Below, one piece after another: positions 2,645 to 56,254 of a stretch of DNA of 64,000 nucleotides; within the stretch, counting starts at the first letter, position 1; the number at the start of each line of letters is the position of its first letter. Source of the stretch: Acinetobacter phage ABPH49. Below the pieces are notes generated by a model. The model ran no database searches and was not told the origin of the DNA. It saw only the letters and a list, made by a program, of their open reading frames with translations. The stretch lies in the sequence record MH533020.1. One strand, written 5' to 3'. Position numbers and translations under genes: made by a program.

Positions 2645-4017
2645 TGACCAAGTCAGTAACTGAGATCCTTAACGAGCTGCGTGCAACCTCGTCTAAGAAC
2701 GAAAAAGAGCGAATCATCCGTGAGAATGCTGATCATGACGGCCTGCGTGAAGCATTTCGTGTAGCTTACTCGAAAGAGTTGAACTTCTTTGTGCGTGGCG
2801 TGAAGAACACCTACCAGAACCCGGGCCTGCGCCCTCTTTCGGACAGCATCAACGATCTGGTAACGAACATCGCTGGCCGCCTGTACACCGGCGACGAAGC
2901 CAAGTCGTACATGCAGCAGCTGATCGGCTTGTGTGAAGAGCCTGATACGCTGGTGGCGATCATCAACCGCGATCTGGAGTGTGGTGTACAGACAACCATC
3001 ACCAACAAAGTGTGGAAGGACCTGATCACCGAGCCTCCGTACCAGAGCTACACGCTGTTCACCGAGAAGTTGCTGCGTAAGTTCAACTTCAAGGGCGCTT
3101 TCTCCGATGAGAAAATGGACGGTCTGTATGCAGACATCATGGTATGGCCTGATCAGGTTATCTATCGCTCACGATCTGGTAAAGAGCTGAACTTCCGTGC
3201 CCCACAGGCAGTGGAAGATGCGCTGATGTCGGCGGCCTGCACTCGAGGCCCATTCGTGGCACACGGTGAAGGTCTGGTTATCGATCCGACAGCACGTCAT
3301 GGTGTTATGGAACGTGCAGAGGGTAACGGCTATCTGAACCAAGATCCTGAAGACATCGACCGAAACCGGGTCCGACTTGTTGTCTGGGACATGGTTGACA
3401 TGGACGATTACATCGCCCGCAAGTCGAAAGTCGAATATTACATTCGTCGTGACAACACCAGCTTCTTGGTTGCAGAGGTGGATGTTCTTGAGCATTTCCA
3501 GATGGTTCGTGGTCGTAAGATCAACAGCCTGAAAGAGGCGATCGACCACTTCATCGAAATGCGACAGCAGAAGAAGGAAGGGACGGTACTCAAAGAAGCT
3601 GATATGTTGTGGGGTGACAACAAGACCAAGAAGGGTATCAAACTGAAGAATGAGTTTGACGTCGATCTGGAAGTTGTTGCGACGACACCTCACAAGAAGA
3701 AGGAAGGTTGGGTGGGCGCTCTGATCTGTCAGACACGTGATGGTCTGCTTGAGGTTGGTGCCGGTTCTGGATTGACAGATGCACTGCGTGGCAAGTCACC
3801 AGACTACTTCGTCGGCCAGATCATCACGATCAAGGCGAACGACATCACGAAATCTGAGACGAAAGAACTCCAGTCTCTGTTCCTGCCACGACTCAACTAC
3901 AAGTTTGTTGAGATCCGCCGGGACAAGAGCATCGCCAACAGTCTGGAAGAAGTTATCCAAGCTGCTGACTCACTGCTGGAACTGCTGCGTAAAATTGCGG
4001 AGGATGTGGATAAATGA
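2644..4017 (+). CDS. ATP-dependent DNA ligase (T4/T7 ligase family)
   Basis: 457 aa ORF; adenylation motif I K-M-D-G (SDEKMDGLYADI) and overall ligase-like layout; TAATG coupling to the upstream gene. Confidence 0.85.
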   Translation: MTKSVTEILNELRATSSKNEKERIIRENADHDGLREAFRVAYSKELNFFVRGVKNTYQNPGLRPLSDSINDLVTNIAGRLYTGDEAKSYMQQLIGLCEEPDTLVAIINRDLECGVQTTITNKVWKDLITEPPYQSYTLFTEKLLRKFNFKGAFSDEKMDGLYADIMVWPDQVIYRSRSGKELNFRAPQAVEDALMSAACTRGPFVAHGEGLVIDPTARHGVMERAEGNGYLNQDPEDIDRNRVRLVVWDMVDMDDYIARKSKVEYYIRRDNTSFLVAEVDVLEHFQMVRGRKINSLKEAIDHFIEMRQQKKEGTVLKEADMLWGDNKTKKGIKLKNEFDVDLEVVATTPHKKKEGWVGALICQTRDGLLEVGAGSGLTDALRGKSPDYFVGQIITIKANDITKSETKELQSLFLPRLNYKFVEIRRDKSIANSLEEVIQAADSLLELLRKIAEDVDK

Positions 4018-6165: not shown

Positions 6166-6196
6166 CTCAAAGGTCACCTTCGGGTGGCCTTTTTCA
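6166..6196 (+). terminator. rho-independent terminator (AAAGGTCACCTTCGGGTGGCCTTTTTC)
   Basis: perfect GC-rich hairpin with UUCG-like loop followed by a T-run; identical copy at 11831-11861. Confidence 0.7.
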
Positions 6197-6223
6197 ATAT
6201 GGCCCACAATAGGGGAGATAAAA

Positions 6224-6442
6224 ATGAAAGGTTTTTGCTTAGGTGTTAGCGTAATGGCGCTGCTTGTAAACATCGTACTGTATTTCTCTATGCCTTCCGC
6301 ACACGCATCGCAGACCATGAGCCTTGTCGATGAATACCGGGACGGCAATCAAAAAGTCTGTGTGTACAGCGACGGACGCAACAGCGCCGAAGTCAGAAAG
6401 AGCCTTGCAGGGGCTTGTCCTTCAAAACATATTCGGGGGTAA
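6224..6442 (+). CDS. small secreted/membrane protein (signal-peptide-like N-terminus)
   Basis: RBS GGGGAGATAAAA; hydrophobic N-terminus MKGFCLGVSVMALLVNIVLYFSMPSAHA. Confidence 0.45.
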   Translation: MKGFCLGVSVMALLVNIVLYFSMPSAHASQTMSLVDEYRDGNQKVCVYSDGRNSAEVRKSLAGACPSKHIRG

Positions 6443-6444
6443 AA

Positions 6445-6762
6445 ATGGGTAACGTACTCCACATCCATGCAACTGATCGCGCTCTGGCTACTGGGCTGTT
6501 TGCACCGCAGGACTCTCCATCTGAGAACTGTGAGTACAACATGTACCTGCCGTCAGAATCATGCGACATGAAGATCTGGCTAACCCAGATCGACACAATC
6601 TTCCAGAGGGTATACTGGATCGGCTTCGACTATGTGACCATCCATAGCGGGGATTATTCAAGCTTGGCAATCACTGGGATGAAAATCAACCTTGGAAATC
6701 TTCTTTTCCGAGAAGGTTCCCGGGTGAATGTCCCTAGTGACCTGCTGAGGAAATTCCTGTGA
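6445..6762 (+). CDS. hypothetical protein
   Basis: RBS GGGGGTAAAA then ATG; part of track ORF 6415..6762. Confidence 0.5.
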   Translation: MGNVLHIHATDRALATGLFAPQDSPSENCEYNMYLPSESCDMKIWLTQIDTIFQRVYWIGFDYVTIHSGDYSSLAITGMKINLGNLLFREGSRVNVPSDLLRKFL

Positions 6763-39501: not shown

Positions 39502-40324
39502 ATTTTGTCCTCATGTCTGCTCATTTCTTTCCACCACTATACCCAACCTAAAGAGGTCCGTCAACTGTTATCTTTCCTTGCCAAAATATCCTGCCCTTTG
39601 GAGGCGGACCGGAGGGAGGCCTCTGGGTCTTGGTGTTTCGGGGGAAATTACACTATTTGGATAGTGGTGCTTGACGGAACCTCTGGGCAGAACGGGGGTG
39701 GGGCGGATCTTTGCCAAATATCTGGGCAAAAATCAAAAAGGGTACCAGTTCCTCGCCGTTCTCAAGTTACAGACATTATAACATCGGCGTGCCAGAATAC
39801 AAGCTTTTTCTTTGCCTTTTTGTTGCAGGCATTCACCAACATTTGGGGTCAGATACAGCACTTTTTGCCAAGAAACCCGGGTTTACCTGTGCTTCACCCA
39901 ATTTAACATAAAACACGTTATACGCACCAACAAGGGACCGGCGGAGCGGGCCTGTTGCAATTGAGTCTCATTACCAACAAGGCAGGCCAGCTAAGGCGCG
40001 GCCAGTGATCAGCCACCTCCATTTGAGAACGCTTCTCATTCAACTTTTGCAATCTGAATCGCAATAATAATTATTCTCATTTGCATTTCGATCCGCATTC
40101 CGGGCACCAACTAAATTTAAAATAAAAATATTTGACAAGTAGCGAATACTGTGTTTTGCTAGGCAGCTTTGCCCTGCTGTTGGTCATCTTGTGAGCAAAT
40201 ACAGCCGCTATCCTGTGGAACCAGACCTCCGGGGCCTGTTGGTCTGCCTCTTCAGTCATCCCCTGATGCATTTCTATGCTAAGAAAACAAGATATTTATT
40301 CACTTAATTTGATAACAAAAAGCT

Positions 40325-40520
40325 TGACATACTGTAATTTGTCTCTATTAAAGACAAAGGAAAATAGAGACAAGCGCCACCGCCGAAGGCGATGATCGCG
40401 GGGGAAGCAACACAGCCTAGCGCGTGATAGCGCTGGGTGTGGGGGTTACTCTATTTTCCTTTGTCGCTCGCTACGCTCGCGCCACCCTGATCGCGGGGGG
40501 AAAACTGCGACATCTGGTAA
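40325..40520 (+). ncRNA. candidate structured RNA or origin-like element: promoter (TTGACA-16-TATTAA) followed by a long imperfect inverted repeat (GACAAAGGAAAATAGAG ... CTCTATTTTCCTTTGTC) enclosing a GATCGCGGGGG direct repeat
   Basis: 17-bp arms about 70 nt apart; no ORF explains the region. Confidence 0.3.
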
Positions 40521-40857
40521 AGGTCAACAGCCGAAAAGCTGTGATCGTCTAAAACAGCCTGTGCGCTGTTTTAAGGCGTTTTCATGCTAAGGTGATAAAT
40601 GGTATGGCTTACAGCCCGAAAGCCTCGCAGTGGTCCGCCTGTGAAGCCGTTTAGATGATAATGGTTCTCAACAAGTTGGTGGTAGGATTTTTAGGGTGAT
40701 TGGTGGGTTTTGGGGGTTGTATTGATCATTGGTTGGTGATATTCTGTTAGATCGGTGTTGGTTGTGGGTGATACCATTCCGCCAGCGGCTAAGGCCGGTT
40801 TCCAACTGGTGGCAATGCCTCGAGGCTCGCCGCTGTTCGCCCTGGGTAATCTTGTGA

Positions 40858-43190: not shown

Positions 43191-43224
43191 ATATTTCTTC
43201 CAGATGATAAAGCTTATCATTTGC

Positions 43225-43385
43225 ATTCTCACCTAAAAGGCCCTGAGAGCGATTCTAAGCGTTTTGCCGTTTTGGCTACCCTCTAAAACCGCCTGTAATC
43301 CATTCTAAGCCGCTTTTGCCTGAAGCCTAGCGGTTATACCTCTTTGAAGAGATCTCACTAATGCGAGCTATTCTCATCTAGAAAA
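43225..43385. repeat. dispersed intergenic repeat (about 150 bp) containing the AGAGATCTC palindrome; second copy at 44590-44730
   Basis: blocks ...CCTGTAA..TAAGCCG.TTT...AGCC...GAGATCTCACTAAT...ATTCTCA shared by both loci. Confidence 0.45.
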
Positions 43386-44589: not shown

Positions 44590-44730
44590 GTTTTGTCCAA
44601 ACTGGTGTTTTAGCTGTTGTCAAGCCGTCTTAAAACGGCCTGTAAGGGCCTATAAGGCGTTTTATCCGTTAGCCTTGCCGTTGTATGGCTTCGCAGAGAT
44701 CTCGCTAATAGGAATAATTCTCAATTGGAA
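44590..44730. repeat. second copy of the dispersed intergenic repeat (see 43225-43385)
   Basis: shared blocks including CGCAGAGATCTCGCTAATAGGAATAATTCTCA. Confidence 0.45.
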
Positions 44731-54074: not shown

Positions 54075-54335
54075 TCATCTTAATTGTGAATCTTTAGACC
54101 CGCGCCGGTTGTACGTTGACGCGATCGCCCGATCGTGGTCCTGTTGGCACGTGATGCAATACCGGCAACCCGGCACGGCCGCCCGGCGGCGCTCTGGTAT
54201 AGGCTCCCCGCAATCGTCACAGTGAGTTAATGATTCACCCCGGCGGATCTGGGACCGTGCAAAATCGATCGCGTTGTCTATTGTTGCTTGGATCATGTTT
54301 AGATGATCGTCAGCACCTGCAAAACCACTAGCCAT
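54075..54335 (-). CDS. DksA/TraR-family C4 zinc-finger protein
   Basis: CDDCGEPIPERRRAAVPGCRYCITCQ matches the TraR/DksA four-Cys finger; start uncertain (54335 or 54296). Confidence 0.55.
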   Translation of the reverse strand: MASGFAGADDHLNMIQATIDNAIDFARSQIRRGESLTHCDDCGEPIPERRRAAVPGCRYCITCQQDHDRAIASTYNRRGSKDSQLR

Positions 54336-54416
54336 AAAATAGAGTCCCTTGTAAAGTTTCGGACAGTCTACGCCAGCCACCGGAGCAAAGCAAGCAAAAA
54401 TATTTTAATTTTGTTG

Positions 54417-54444
54417 TTGACTGCTGCAACACAGGGCCTATAAT
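54417..54444 (+). promoter_or_regulatory. sigma70 promoter (TTGACT-16-TATAAT) reading rightwards out of the minus-strand block
   Basis: perfect -10 and near-perfect -35 in the intergenic region. Confidence 0.5.
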
Positions 54445-54475
54445 GGAGGTACAAACAACGCGGAGAATTGAAACA

Positions 54476-54685
54476 ATGTTGAACCTTGACCAGTTGAAAG
54501 CAGCAATAAATAACGGGGAGCTTGAAACGGCTTACAAGGATTGCCGCCGGTACGGGGTGATAACCTCCAAAGAGGATCGCCAGTGGTTTGGCGACATTAT
54601 CACCACGGTTTGGATAAGTTATCTGGGTAGGCCCTTTAAATTCTCCTTGCGGTTAGGTGTGGTAACGGCGGCAACTCTTTATTAA
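54476..54685 (+). CDS. hypothetical small protein (69 aa) on the + strand inside the - strand block
   Basis: downstream of the 54417 promoter; weak RBS; part of track ORF 54443..54685. Confidence 0.3.
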   Translation: MLNLDQLKAAINNGELETAYKDCRRYGVITSKEDRQWFGDIITTVWISYLGRPFKFSLRLGVVTAATLY

Positions 54686-55019
54686 ATTGTGTTGACAACC
54701 CAGCGCAAGCTGGGTTATTCTGTTGTCAGCAGGAAACGCCACCCCACGGCGAAAAGGCGGGGCTAACGCAGCCGGGCACGGCGCGGAAGGTTAATCGCCG
54801 GTAGCTCGTCCAAAATTTCTTTTGTAAAGATTGAGAAAAAGCTTGATCGTGGGTGTGAGTGTGCTATTCTTATCACATGGCACCGGATGACGGGGAAGAC
54901 AAACACCACCCCTGCCTGTCATTCTGCAAACGAGAATGATTATCATTCAACATCCTAAATGAGAACCATTCTCATCCCGACCGGGAGAGATCTAGACCGA
55001 AAAACTGATTTACAAAAAC

Positions 55020-55235
55020 AGGATACCCTAGAAAAATTTTTCGCCCTCCCCTCTTCTGATATAATACGATCGGAAATTTAAAAAATCGATCGAGATCCTA
55101 AAAATTTTTCGCCCTGCCCTTCTGTAGATTACGAAACCGAAAATGAAAAACCGATCGAGTACCAGAAAATTTTTTCGCCCTCCCCTGCCCGGGGTATTTC
55201 GATCTCGATTTTGAAAAACCGATCGAGAACTCAAG
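55020..55235. repeat. three tandem direct repeats of about 65 bp (core AAAAATTTTTCGCCCTCCCCT ... AAAAA(T/C)CGATCGAGA); candidate iterons or origin
   Basis: read directly from the sequence; the first unit carries an extended -10 TGATATAAT; no credible ORF (only the spurious 55028..55234 ORF). Confidence 0.6.
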
Positions 55236-55379
55236 TTTTTTTTAATCCCACGAGGTTGGTAGGAGCGGGCCGATGGAGACCCTTCCGGTGGGTCAAGGTG
55301 TTGGGATACGTGGCGAAGTTATCCACACTTGGAGGTAAGTGGGTGGTAAGCTGTAGGTGGATGGAGGCCCTGAGTGGGT

Positions 55380-55470
55380 GATTACCGGCAACCGAGTGGC
55401 CGCCGGGATCTCAATTTGAATCTCGATTTGGATTTGATTTTGATTCAGGTTTTATAATATCCTGAAAAAT
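55380..55470. repeat. AT-rich tract with short GATTTG/GATTTTG direct repeats; candidate DNA-unwinding or origin element
   Basis: ATCTCAATTTGAATCTCGATTTGGATTTGATTTTGATTCAGG...TATAATATCC. Confidence 0.4.
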
Positions 55471-55471
55471 A

Positions 55472-56254
55472 TCAAATATCTCCAAATATCTTGTCGAGAT
55501 TGTACTGGTGGGACGGGTAAATCATCTGGAAAAGATCTCCCTCTTCTTTCGTAGGCTTCGTCCAGTCAACAAATATCTTCTTCACCTCTGCGATAGGGAT
55601 CGTTAAATATCCGCTATCACCGGGCAGCTGCATCCCGACCTTACCCTCTGTAAGGTTCAACACACATCCATTGCGGTAAACGTAGAAGCCGTGGCCGCAC
55701 CACACGGCACGAATACCCTGCACTGGGTCCATGATCTGATACTCACCACGCTTCAAGTCAGGGTACATGGTGCAACGCCTCAGGCCGAGCGACGTAATTA
55801 CCTCAACAAACAACGGGGCGACTTTATGTGCGGCTATGTGGGAATCAACAGTCATGGCGTATGGGAGGTTTCTAGTAAGTTCTTCCCTCATGTGGGTCAC
55901 CATAATCTTCAGCTGTTCCAGAGACAGCTCGTCAAGGTCTGGTTCCTCATGTAAGCCGCCTGACGCCTCTAGGGCACATACCACGTCATGGCGGAAGTCA
56001 TCCATCTTCTCGTAGACTTTGTCGTGGTACTCCATGAAGTCACTGAAGTCGGGGGCCGAAAGGCTGTTAAGCTCCTTCACCAATGGGTGCACGTCATCAA
56101 GATCATCAGCATTATCGAGATTGTTGGCAATCGTGGCAATCTCCGACATCAGGTCATCCGCACTCGGAGAGGCTGGAGTCTTGCAATTGTAATTGGCATA
56201 GTATTCGGTAACACCCAATACGTGATCCATAGTGATATGGTTTAGTGGCACAAA
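55472..56254 (-). CDS. hypothetical protein
   Basis: track ORF 55472..56383; the N-terminal 40 aa are low-complexity; GTG 56254 with SD AGGAGG preferred, ATG 56230 as alternative. Confidence 0.45.
   Translation of the reverse strand, partial: FVPLNHITMDHVLGVTEYYANYNCKTPASPSADDLMSEIATIANNLDNADDLDDVHPLVKELNSLSAPDFSDFMEYHDKVYEKMDDFRHDVVCALEASGGLHEEPDLDELSLEQLKIMVTHMREELTRNLPYAMTVDSHIAAHKVAPLFVEVITSLGLRRCTMYPDLKRGEYQIMDPVQGIRAVWCGHGFYVYRNGCVLNLTEGKVGMQLPGDSGYLTIPIAEVKKIFVDWTKPTKEEGDLFQMIYPSHQYNLDKIFGDI

Follow-up and report, generated by a model that had tools for sequence, protein, structure and literature searches.

A conserved non-coding hub with predicted Fur boxes in rV5-like and phi92-like phages, read as a candidate regulatory centre

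The stretch described here lies at about 54400–55470 of a 64,000-nucleotide window from Acinetobacter phage ABPH49 (MH533020.1; positions refer to this window unless stated otherwise), inside a long run of minus-strand genes. The source phage is a Serratia-type member of the Vequintavirinae, the studied region being 97.8% identical to Serratia phage vB_SmaM-Kashira (Kashira below). We propose, with a probability of about one half, that the stretch serves as a non-coding control hub of composite build, placed where two leftward operons meet and wired to host factors. Judged from its sequence, the best reading is that of a host-coupled regulatory hub whose repeats would bind a phage protein. From left to right it is built of back-to-back promoters, a small open reading frame (ORF) with a terminator, about 250 nt of conserved sequence, palindromes, repeats, a GC-rich spacer and an AT tract, and this layout was present in all rV5-like and phi92-like loci that we retrieved, Serratia phages included, in every case as a gap of 0.7–1.3 kb within a minus-strand block. 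A preliminary description of the DNA had called the region a non-coding hub of about 1 kb and a candidate for either a replication origin or a regulatory centre. The regulatory centre is supported by the conserved, modular and promoter-rich organization and by the sites for host factors, and an origin is retained as a tentative option. As to the extent, about 790 bp (54686–55471) plus the promoter region are indeed non-coding, but the first 300 bp or so hold an ORF of 69 aa; the region is also the largest non-coding stretch of its block, as had been stated, by a narrow margin over a rival island of about 725 bp at 39965–40690. The small ORF, the conserved core of 250 nt and the palindromic boxes had been overlooked, the boxes being the most informative part of the hub.

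These palindromes are Fur boxes, that is, predicted operators of the iron regulator Fur. Box 1 (54926–54950, with the core CGAGAATGATTATCA at 54931–54945) agrees with the 19-bp Fur consensus GATAATGATAATCATTATC at 15 and 14 of 19 positions in two registers 6 bp apart, giving paired sites at 54926/54932, and box 2 (54955–54977, with the core TGAGAACCATTCTCA at 54960–54974) agrees with it at 13 of 19 positions. Both agree with the 7-1-7 Fur motif except for one position in each half-site, the 7-1-7 cores in the window showing 2 and 3 mismatches to TGATAATnATTATCA. Compared across phages the palindromes follow the consensus AAATGAGAATnATTMTCATT (here at 54931 and 54960) and occur as one to four 19-bp copies per hub, with a single box or two boxes only in PVP-SE1, Hena1 and UPEC06; box 2 lies 29 bp from box 1, and the same spacing is found in every hub with two to four boxes. 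Sites matching the consensus at 14 or more of 19 positions are present in all 13 hubs, in T5 and in a T5-like phage, and pairs offset by 6 bp recur in BIS47, phiTE, phAPEC8, PVP-SE1, Hena1, FV3 and T5. According to Chen et al. 2007, overlapping sites offset by 3 or 6 bp are the signature of Fur clusters (PMC2189734). Sites for ArgR, KdgR, IHF, FNR and CRP fitted the box more poorly than Fur in an informal comparison.

The link to T5 came from the weakest BLAST match of the hub core, which led to the T5-like Klebsiella phage Kpn13-P3 with three boxes beside DnaA boxes inside an untranslated region of 2.1 kb. In T5 itself (AY587007, 9468–9637) the annotated direct repeat C copies 1–4 and the palindromes E–I of Repeat Region 3, where the injection-stop signal resides, are made of the box motif, and one of the T5 copies is identical over 19 nt to the Fur operator of E. 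coli gpmA. A search of 5,426 complete E. coli genomes with a 34-nt T5 copy of the motif placed its best chromosomal matches in intergenic DNA throughout, ahead of mntH, gpmA (19/19) and nohA. These operators, validated by gel shift or genetics, fall at positions listed as Fur clusters by Chen et al. (Table 4). There the gpmA cluster has 27.4 bits, tied for the strongest in the genome, and is gel-shift positive, the nohA cluster is gel-shift positive as well, and the mntH cluster, at 19.9 bits, is cited there as being under Fur/MntR repression (PMC2189734). The window itself shares with the mntH operator the 14-mer GAGAATGATTATCA, which is part of box 1. As far as our literature search shows, the link between Fur boxes and T5 has not been described, and the comparative study of the T5 region by Davison (preprint) nowhere mentions Fur. 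The validated nohA Fur site of the E. coli Qin prophage, AAATGATAATAATTATCATTTGCATGTCAC, lies between nohA and ynfO (1801–1830 of the retrieved segment) and runs on into TTTGCATnTCAC, a continuation also seen in the boxes of T5 and phAPEC8 (TCATTTGCATTTC). Because this site adjoins a Nu1-like packaging gene, phage-borne Fur boxes may be more widespread.

The calculated shear point of first-step transfer in T5 (9618) falls within the box array, and for this reason the T5 Fur array could be the protein-binding part of the injection-stop region. That the hub is itself an injection-stop signal of the T5 type, with the function of T5 Repeat Region 3, is the least credible of the explanations considered here. 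The shared motif does form direct repeat C copies 1–4 and palindromes E–I around the T5 shear point, and Kpn13-P3 has two of its three boxes 29 bp apart beside DnaA boxes. However, such a signal requires a fixed distance from the genome end, and the genomes of rV5, CB7 and phiTE are circularly permuted, so that no such distance exists and the explanation is contradicted; moreover, homologues of A1, A2 and dmp are absent from the 64-kb window and paired DnaA boxes are absent from the hub.

A different use of the boxes is suggested by their number. Scanning the window with the Fur consensus gave 2 sites at 15 or more matches of 19 (0 simulated), 7 at 14 or more (0.8 simulated) and 34 at 13 or more (7.5 simulated), and palindrome matches were 11 instead of the expected 3.2, mostly in intergenic gaps at 40–45 kb. 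The hub and the other early intergenic boxes might thus act as a sponge which titrates host Fur as the genome amplifies and de-represses iron uptake for phage nucleotide metabolism; the Fur titration assay rests on the same principle. The window-wide enrichment speaks for a sponge, as do the identity of the box sequences with the strongest Fur sites of E. coli and the multiple copies of the motif in each of the two terminal repeats of T5. Against it, the spacing of 29 bp and the place of the boxes directly after conserved unit B (see below) are fixed in every genus, which suggests a local role in cis over titration, and hubs such as those of PVP-SE1, Hena1 and UPEC06 have one or two boxes only; all in all we consider a sponge quite improbable. 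Among the further Fur-like palindromes, those at 43205–43219, 43244–43258, 43362–43376 and 44709–44723 sit between genes of the early minus-strand block, in short gaps; at 43206 the match is 15/19, with a partner 6 bp away, and the palindromes at 43362 and 44709 share the upstream motif GAGATCTCnCTAAT and lie 10–20 nt past a stop codon.

The boxes lie within a 275-bp core (54716–54990) that matched 358 phage records at 71–76% identity in a nucleotide BLAST search. The matches span the Vequintavirinae (Mydovirus, Certrevirus, Seunavirus, Henunavirus, Vequintavirus) and the Stephanstirmvirinae (Phapecoctavirus, Justusliebigvirus), and the 3' part of the core also matches Aeromonas Plateaulakevirus. 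About 21 records named 'Campylobacter phage' (MG0656xx, 135–151 kb) carry the hub too; their size and content are those of rV5-like coliphages and the host label is doubtful. A protein-coding core was rejected: the core is non-coding because its indels (1, 4, 5, 6 and 7 nt) are not confined to multiples of three and no ORF is kept. In the rV5 genome paper the region is drawn as a grey box labelled 'non-coding' only (PMC3606486), and this grey box is now resolved into defined parts and tied, through the predicted boxes, to the iron regulator Fur. Hypothetical coding sequences (CDSs) annotated over the triple repeats or over the conserved units A and B, namely PVP-SE1 gp202 (2774–3058 of the retrieved segment), BIS47_205 (2793–3137), FV3_00182 (2263–2553) and phAPEC8 gp009 (2345–2686), are doubtful because of the repeat structure and the non-triplet indels and are probably not genes; the same holds for plus-strand ORFs annotated over repeats or units A/B in two further retrieved loci. 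The record of Klebsiella phage K45PH128C2 (OY978796) places ten tRNA features in the retrieved segment 1–4252, including tRNA-Ile and tRNA-Met over the element; none of these was reproduced by ARAGORN or Rfam, and the coordinates of the record look misplaced. At gathering score Rfam 15 had no match to the window or to four related loci, at E up to 10 it gave nothing credible in 54200–55700, and ARAGORN found no tRNA, so that by these two tools the hub is neither a tRNA nor a known RNA family.

Two predicted promoters of the host sigma-70 type within the hub, P2 and P3, point rightward against the surrounding genes and cover about 250 nt of conserved non-coding sequence. P2 (TTGACA-18-TATTCT, 54692–54721, plus strand), which had been described before as a promoter-like site with a hairpin in its spacer, was recovered by our promoter scan, and its hexamers are kept in all genera together with a UP-like A-run. 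The spacer hairpin (54697–54716) has a folding energy of –14.3 kcal/mol (z = –3.3), and with its U-rich tail after the GC-rich stem the same 54692–54721 element is scored both as a promoter and as a terminator. Both sides of the hairpin change in 7 of 8 pairs; 79% of the hairpin cells are paired in comparison to 67% in shuffles, none of 500 shuffles being as good, and slid controls gave 17–55%. Since G-U pairs occur, the hairpin would act in the plus-strand RNA, and we read it as the terminator of the P1 transcript (see below), embedded in the next promoter. P3 (TTGATC-16-TATTCT, 54843–54870, plus strand) is preceded by the motif TGTAAAGA, which is duplicated in most relatives, and has conserved hexamers (TTGCAA/TTGCTT and TATATT/TATTCT across relatives) with a spacer that is free to vary in sequence.

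Between P2 and P3 lies unit A (54727–54812, plus strand), a conserved non-coding segment consisting of the core CGCCACCCCACGGCGnAAAGGCGGGGCUAAC, a hairpin of variable length and GGAAGGUGGAUCGCCGGUAG. The core of 31 nt is invariant in most genera, and the hairpin (helix 3) has two compensatory columns and no broken pairs. Unit A has no Rfam match and is absent from 185,579 bacterial genomes save for one contig of a metagenome-assembled genome. Its 3' end is a module boundary, as an insertion in Raoultella phage Ro1, whose record has two matching places, falls exactly there: a gene with a ribosome-binding site (AGGAGG ... ATGAAAAAAGTTTATGGTG ...) directly follows GGATCGCTGGTAC, between unit A and P3/unit B, and may encode a homing endonuclease. 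Unit B (54876–54925, plus strand) is a hairpin-prone segment with the conserved motif GAGACAAACACC; its plus strand folds with –20.5 kcal/mol (z = –2.5) and its minus strand gives z = 0.0. FV3 and rV5 lack unit A and have unit B in duplicate, each copy with its own promoter and Fur box. Units A and B might also constitute a purely trans-acting locus of small RNAs that target host or phage mRNAs, the repeats being incidental. The conserved promoters, the conserved core of about 30 nt in unit A, the motif GAGACAAACACC as a possible seed and the strand-specific fold stability of unit B agree with this. Yet neither unit is followed by a terminator, covariation is weak, and the triple repeats, the Fur array and the AT tract would be left unexplained, making such a locus unlikely. 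An antitoxin mimic of the pseudo-ToxI or type III kind was rejected, as the locus is the wrong one and the repeat unit is about 66 bp instead of about 36–45 nt and near-identical.

We can now put these parts together in a model for the regulatory hub. P1 would express a swappable accessory ORF, its transcript ending at the hairpin in the P2 spacer, and on infection host RNA polymerase would start rightward non-coding transcription at P2 and P3. Fur loaded with Fe2+ would bind to its operators, about +50 to +100 relative to the P3 start, and limit transcription into the module of repeats and AT tract; a weak leftward promoter-like site overlapping box 1 (TTGAAT-18-CAGAAT) may be repressed by it as well. 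In this way the module would respond to the iron state of the host, with the start of replication, read-through between the two operons or the assembly of a nucleoprotein complex as candidate processes under control. Several points weigh against the model. The leftward site that overlaps box 1 has only 8 of 12 matches, and the hub boxes lie 3' of P3, whereas Fur boxes usually overlap the promoter they repress. The minimum free energy of unit A is no better than that of shuffles (z = +0.5) and only two of its columns covary; a consensus structure for unit B gave three competing stem registers, none of them kept between genera; and the scan predicted no plus-strand terminator 3' of P3. Our literature search yielded no transcriptome studies for these phages.

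The module downstream of the boxes begins with three iteron-like repeats of about 66 bp (55030–55235; R1 55030–55097, R2 55098–55163, R3 55164–55235). The three direct repeats of the preliminary description were recovered by Tandem Repeats Finder (TRF; period 66, score 182) and by a repeat search (spacings of 65–68 bp), and both motifs it had assigned to them are present, AAATTTTTCGCCCTCCCCT in three copies in all and AAAACCGATCGAG in each unit. The units are 68–87% alike and read A5T5-6CG ... (A)TACGATC ... GAAAAACCGATCGAGwAC; the 19-mer AAATTTTTCGCCCTCCCCT, with three copies against 0.03 expected, is found nowhere else in the 64 kb. The extended –10 element of repeat 1 is also present (TGaTATAAT, 55057–55065, plus strand) and is kept in ChuuTotoro and not in other genera. 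As repeat 1 alone has such an element, the suggestion of three spaced promoters within the repeats does not hold. Three units of 63–79 bp (four in UPEC06) were found in 10 of 10 other rV5-like and phi92-like hubs examined, the carriers being Serratia phages, Mydovirus, Certrevirus, Henunavirus, Vequintavirus, UPEC06 and PVP-SE1 (under the annotated gp202), and no triple repeat is present in the hub of the Aeromonas phage. Units of the Vequintavirinae share A5T6CG ... ATACGATC ... GAAAAACCGATCGAGwAC with lineage variants such as CCTCTCAAG, and those of the Stephanstirmvirinae stand at the same place with unrelated sequence. Thus promoters and Fur boxes are strongly conserved in sequence and the repeats only in number and spacing. 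Because number and spacing are kept while the sequence changes with the lineage, we infer that the repeats are sites for a co-evolving phage DNA-binding protein and behave like iterons. The tetranucleotide GATC is enriched in the hub (10 against 4.3 expected), but a Dam/SeqA theme was discarded since the repeats of Hena1, FV3 and UPEC06 are without GATC.

Repeats of this kind might also mark a pac region for headful packaging, in which they would be sites of the terminase small subunit with bent A-tracts. Phased A5T6 tracts and repeated boxes resemble pac sites of the SPP1 or P1 type, headful packaging and circular permutation are both features of these genomes, and the Fur sites of E. coli nohA and nohB adjoin Nu1-like packaging genes of prophages. 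Such sites, however, normally lie in or beside the gene for the terminase small subunit, and no terminase was found among the screened ORFs adjacent to the hub, the rest of the window not having been searched; also, the study of CB7 found no region of raised read depth. We therefore rate a pac region as very unlikely.

A GC-rich spacer (55240–55404) that differs between genera separates the repeats from the AT-rich tract and contains a perfect DnaA box (55319–55327) that is found only in the window phage and Kashira. The tract had been placed at 55380–55470; it is present, at 55405–55495, and 55380–55404 are GC-rich. It overlaps the last codons of the flanking gene and contains short repeats of the GATTTG type (55408–55445, detected by TRF), an inverted repeat TTCAGG...CCTGAA (55446–55468) and three AAATATC heptamers on the plus strand (55467, 55474 and 55484). 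The least stable 60-bp duplex of the entire window is found here (55432–55491, –65.5 kcal/mol against a mean of –85.3 with a standard deviation of 4.8). At the right edge, 10 of 13 hubs have two to four copies of AAATATC, all of them on the plus strand, where 0.07 would be expected.

This arrangement makes a replication origin possible, if of lower probability: a phage initiator would bind the repeats as its iterons, with the AAATATC/GATTTG tract serving as unwinding element, and initiation would be activated or primed by rightward transcripts from P2, P3 and repeat 1. The iteron-like behaviour of the triple repeat across genera, the least stable duplex, the phased heptamers in a single orientation and several co-directional promoters that run toward the module without a protein product all agree with an origin, and according to the rV5 paper these phages carry PolA and a gp4-like primase-helicase, as in T7. 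A direct-repeat array beside an AT-rich element is what an iteron origin calls for; here about 165 bp of GC-rich DNA lie between the two, and 160–300 bp of such variable DNA in the hubs generally, which counts against an origin. So does the GC skew, which the preliminary description had proposed as a check: it is flat at 54–55 kb without inflection, and its sole sign change at about 32 kb tracks the switch of the gene strand. The test is weak in these phages because skew follows transcription, and for the same reason the authors of the rV5 genome could not locate an origin by skew (PMC3606486). Further points against an origin are that the DnaA box is limited to the window phage and Kashira, that no hub has an IHF consensus, that the flanking ORFs show no Rep-like, winged-helix or initiator domain or fold match, and that T5 is reported to have its replication origins outside the region that carries the Fur-box module (10.1101/866236). 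Our literature search found no studies of replication origins for these phages. Origin function is compatible with the regulatory hub, into which it would fit as the process being controlled.

The gene on the right, the last of the upstream leftward operon, encodes 259 aa from its ATG (55472–56251, minus strand; 303 aa from GTG in the ORF list). Its product is 100% identical to a protein recorded for Acinetobacter phage ABPH49. It comes from a very small and rapidly evolving family (5 representatives among 1.8 billion; AlphaFold2 predicted local distance difference test score 64) and was dismissed as an initiator as it has no match in Pfam, in sequences of the Protein Data Bank (PDB) or among PDB folds. 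Also found nearby were a DUF2201 metallopeptidase and an HD-domain protein. On the left the hub is bordered by a TraR/DksA zinc-finger gene of 86 aa (54075–54335, minus strand; PF01258, E = 9.5e-14), which opens the leftward operon beginning at the hub and is uncalled in Kashira, the closest annotated relative. A candidate promoter for this operon, TTGCTT-17-TAGACT (54365–54393, minus strand), was read by eye and stays under the threshold of the promoter scan. It stands back-to-back with P1, with an A/T-rich tract (54396–54416) common to both. P1, described earlier as a perfect rightward promoter, is confirmed as sigma-70-type (TTGACT-16-TATAAT, 54417–54444, plus strand) with 11 of 12 matches in the scan.

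Downstream of P1 the small ORF of 69 aa (54476–54685, plus strand; phrog_23636) occupies a swappable cargo slot, and in relatives a small plus-strand ORF is frequently found just upstream of the conserved element. Kashira is 99% identical through P1 to the ribosome-binding site and then again from the –35 of P2, and between these identical flanks has an unrelated ORF (phrog_19316); the exchange is precise (54443–54690 of the window against 6168–6445 of the retrieved Kashira segment) in phages that are 98% identical. Other families fill the slot in phiTE, in PVP-SE1/BIS47 (DUF7170) and in the Aeromonas phage, and across phages five unrelated protein families were counted. Because unrelated families are precisely swapped at the same slot, the exchange is, going by sequence comparison, the pattern of an accessory or anti-defence hotspot.

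The rival non-coding island at 39965–40690 has plus-strand TTGACA promoters at about 40133 and 40324, a long inverted repeat (GACAAAGGAAAATAGAG ... CTCTATTTTCCTTTGTC) around about 85 nt of GC-rich sequence (about 40353–40472), Fur-like boxes at both edges (40024, 40060–40079 and 40656) and the second least stable duplex of the window (40292–40351). It is conserved only in the Serratia phages Kashira and ChuuTotoro. As it resembles the hub in nothing besides the Fur-like boxes and is restricted to Serratia phages, it was not accepted as a paralogue of the hub.

Phages of the rV5-like and phi92-like groups are widely used candidates for therapy and biocontrol. If Fur binds the boxes, a conserved route would couple a lytic phage programme to the iron status of the host. 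Part of the long-unexplained injection-stop region of T5 is occupied by this Fur-box motif. A wider generalization, which we put forward as doubtful, is that Fur-operator arrays are a cis-element shared by rV5-like, phi92-like and T5-like phages, three mutually unrelated groups of virulent enterobacterial phages. The arrays would let the phage read or manipulate the host iron status as infection begins and could gate non-coding transcription into an iteron/unwinding module, with control over replication or the early-to-middle switch.

Compared with known systems, the hub has partial counterparts only. The pseudo-ToxI locus of phiTE, an antitoxin-mimic RNA with a demonstrated anti-defence role (PMC3475682), is likewise a non-coding tandem repeat in a Vequintavirinae genome, but it lies at 106.7 kb and the phiTE hub at 39.5 kb, and its repeats are 36 nt long and near-identical, those of the hub being 66 bp and only 70–80% alike. 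With lambda ori, plasmid iteron origins, the T7 primary origin and T4 oriF/oriG the hub has in common direct repeats, an easily melted AT tract, inward promoters and host-factor sites; lambda ori shows transcriptional activation, and T7 and T4 oriF/oriG the combination of a promoter with an AT-rich element. Typical iterons measure 17–22 bp, whereas the hub has three repeats of about 66 bp only, units of greater length being found in P4 crr and F sopC, and unlike iteron origins it has no initiator gene nearby, no skew signal and no conserved DnaA box. T5 Repeat Region 3 and the hub are both large, conserved untranslated regions of virulent enterobacterial phages with direct repeats and palindromes; T5 palindromes such as AAATGAGAATCATTATCATT are the same motif as the hub boxes, and the 29-bp spacing of the hubs also separates two of the three boxes in the T5-like Klebsiella phage. 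The T5 region, however, has a fixed place in a 10-kb terminal repeat, paired DnaA boxes, nine DRD repeats and the A1 and A2 proteins, whereas the group of the window phage has permuted ends, no conserved DnaA boxes and no A1/A2 in the 64-kb window, and in a pairwise comparison with T5 similarity is restricted to the boxes, units A and B, P2, P3 and the 66-bp repeats being unmatched. Finally, E. coli Fur sites overlap the promoters that they repress, whereas the phage boxes form a regular array 3' of a promoter with no recognisable gene under control. In the Fur clusters of E. coli and in the phage boxes alike, overlapping sites lie 6 bp apart, the gpmA site AATGAGAATCATTATCATT is the T5 box in 19 of 19 positions, and the mntH site shares GAGAATGATTATCA with box 1 of the window and 18 nt with a Mydovirus box.

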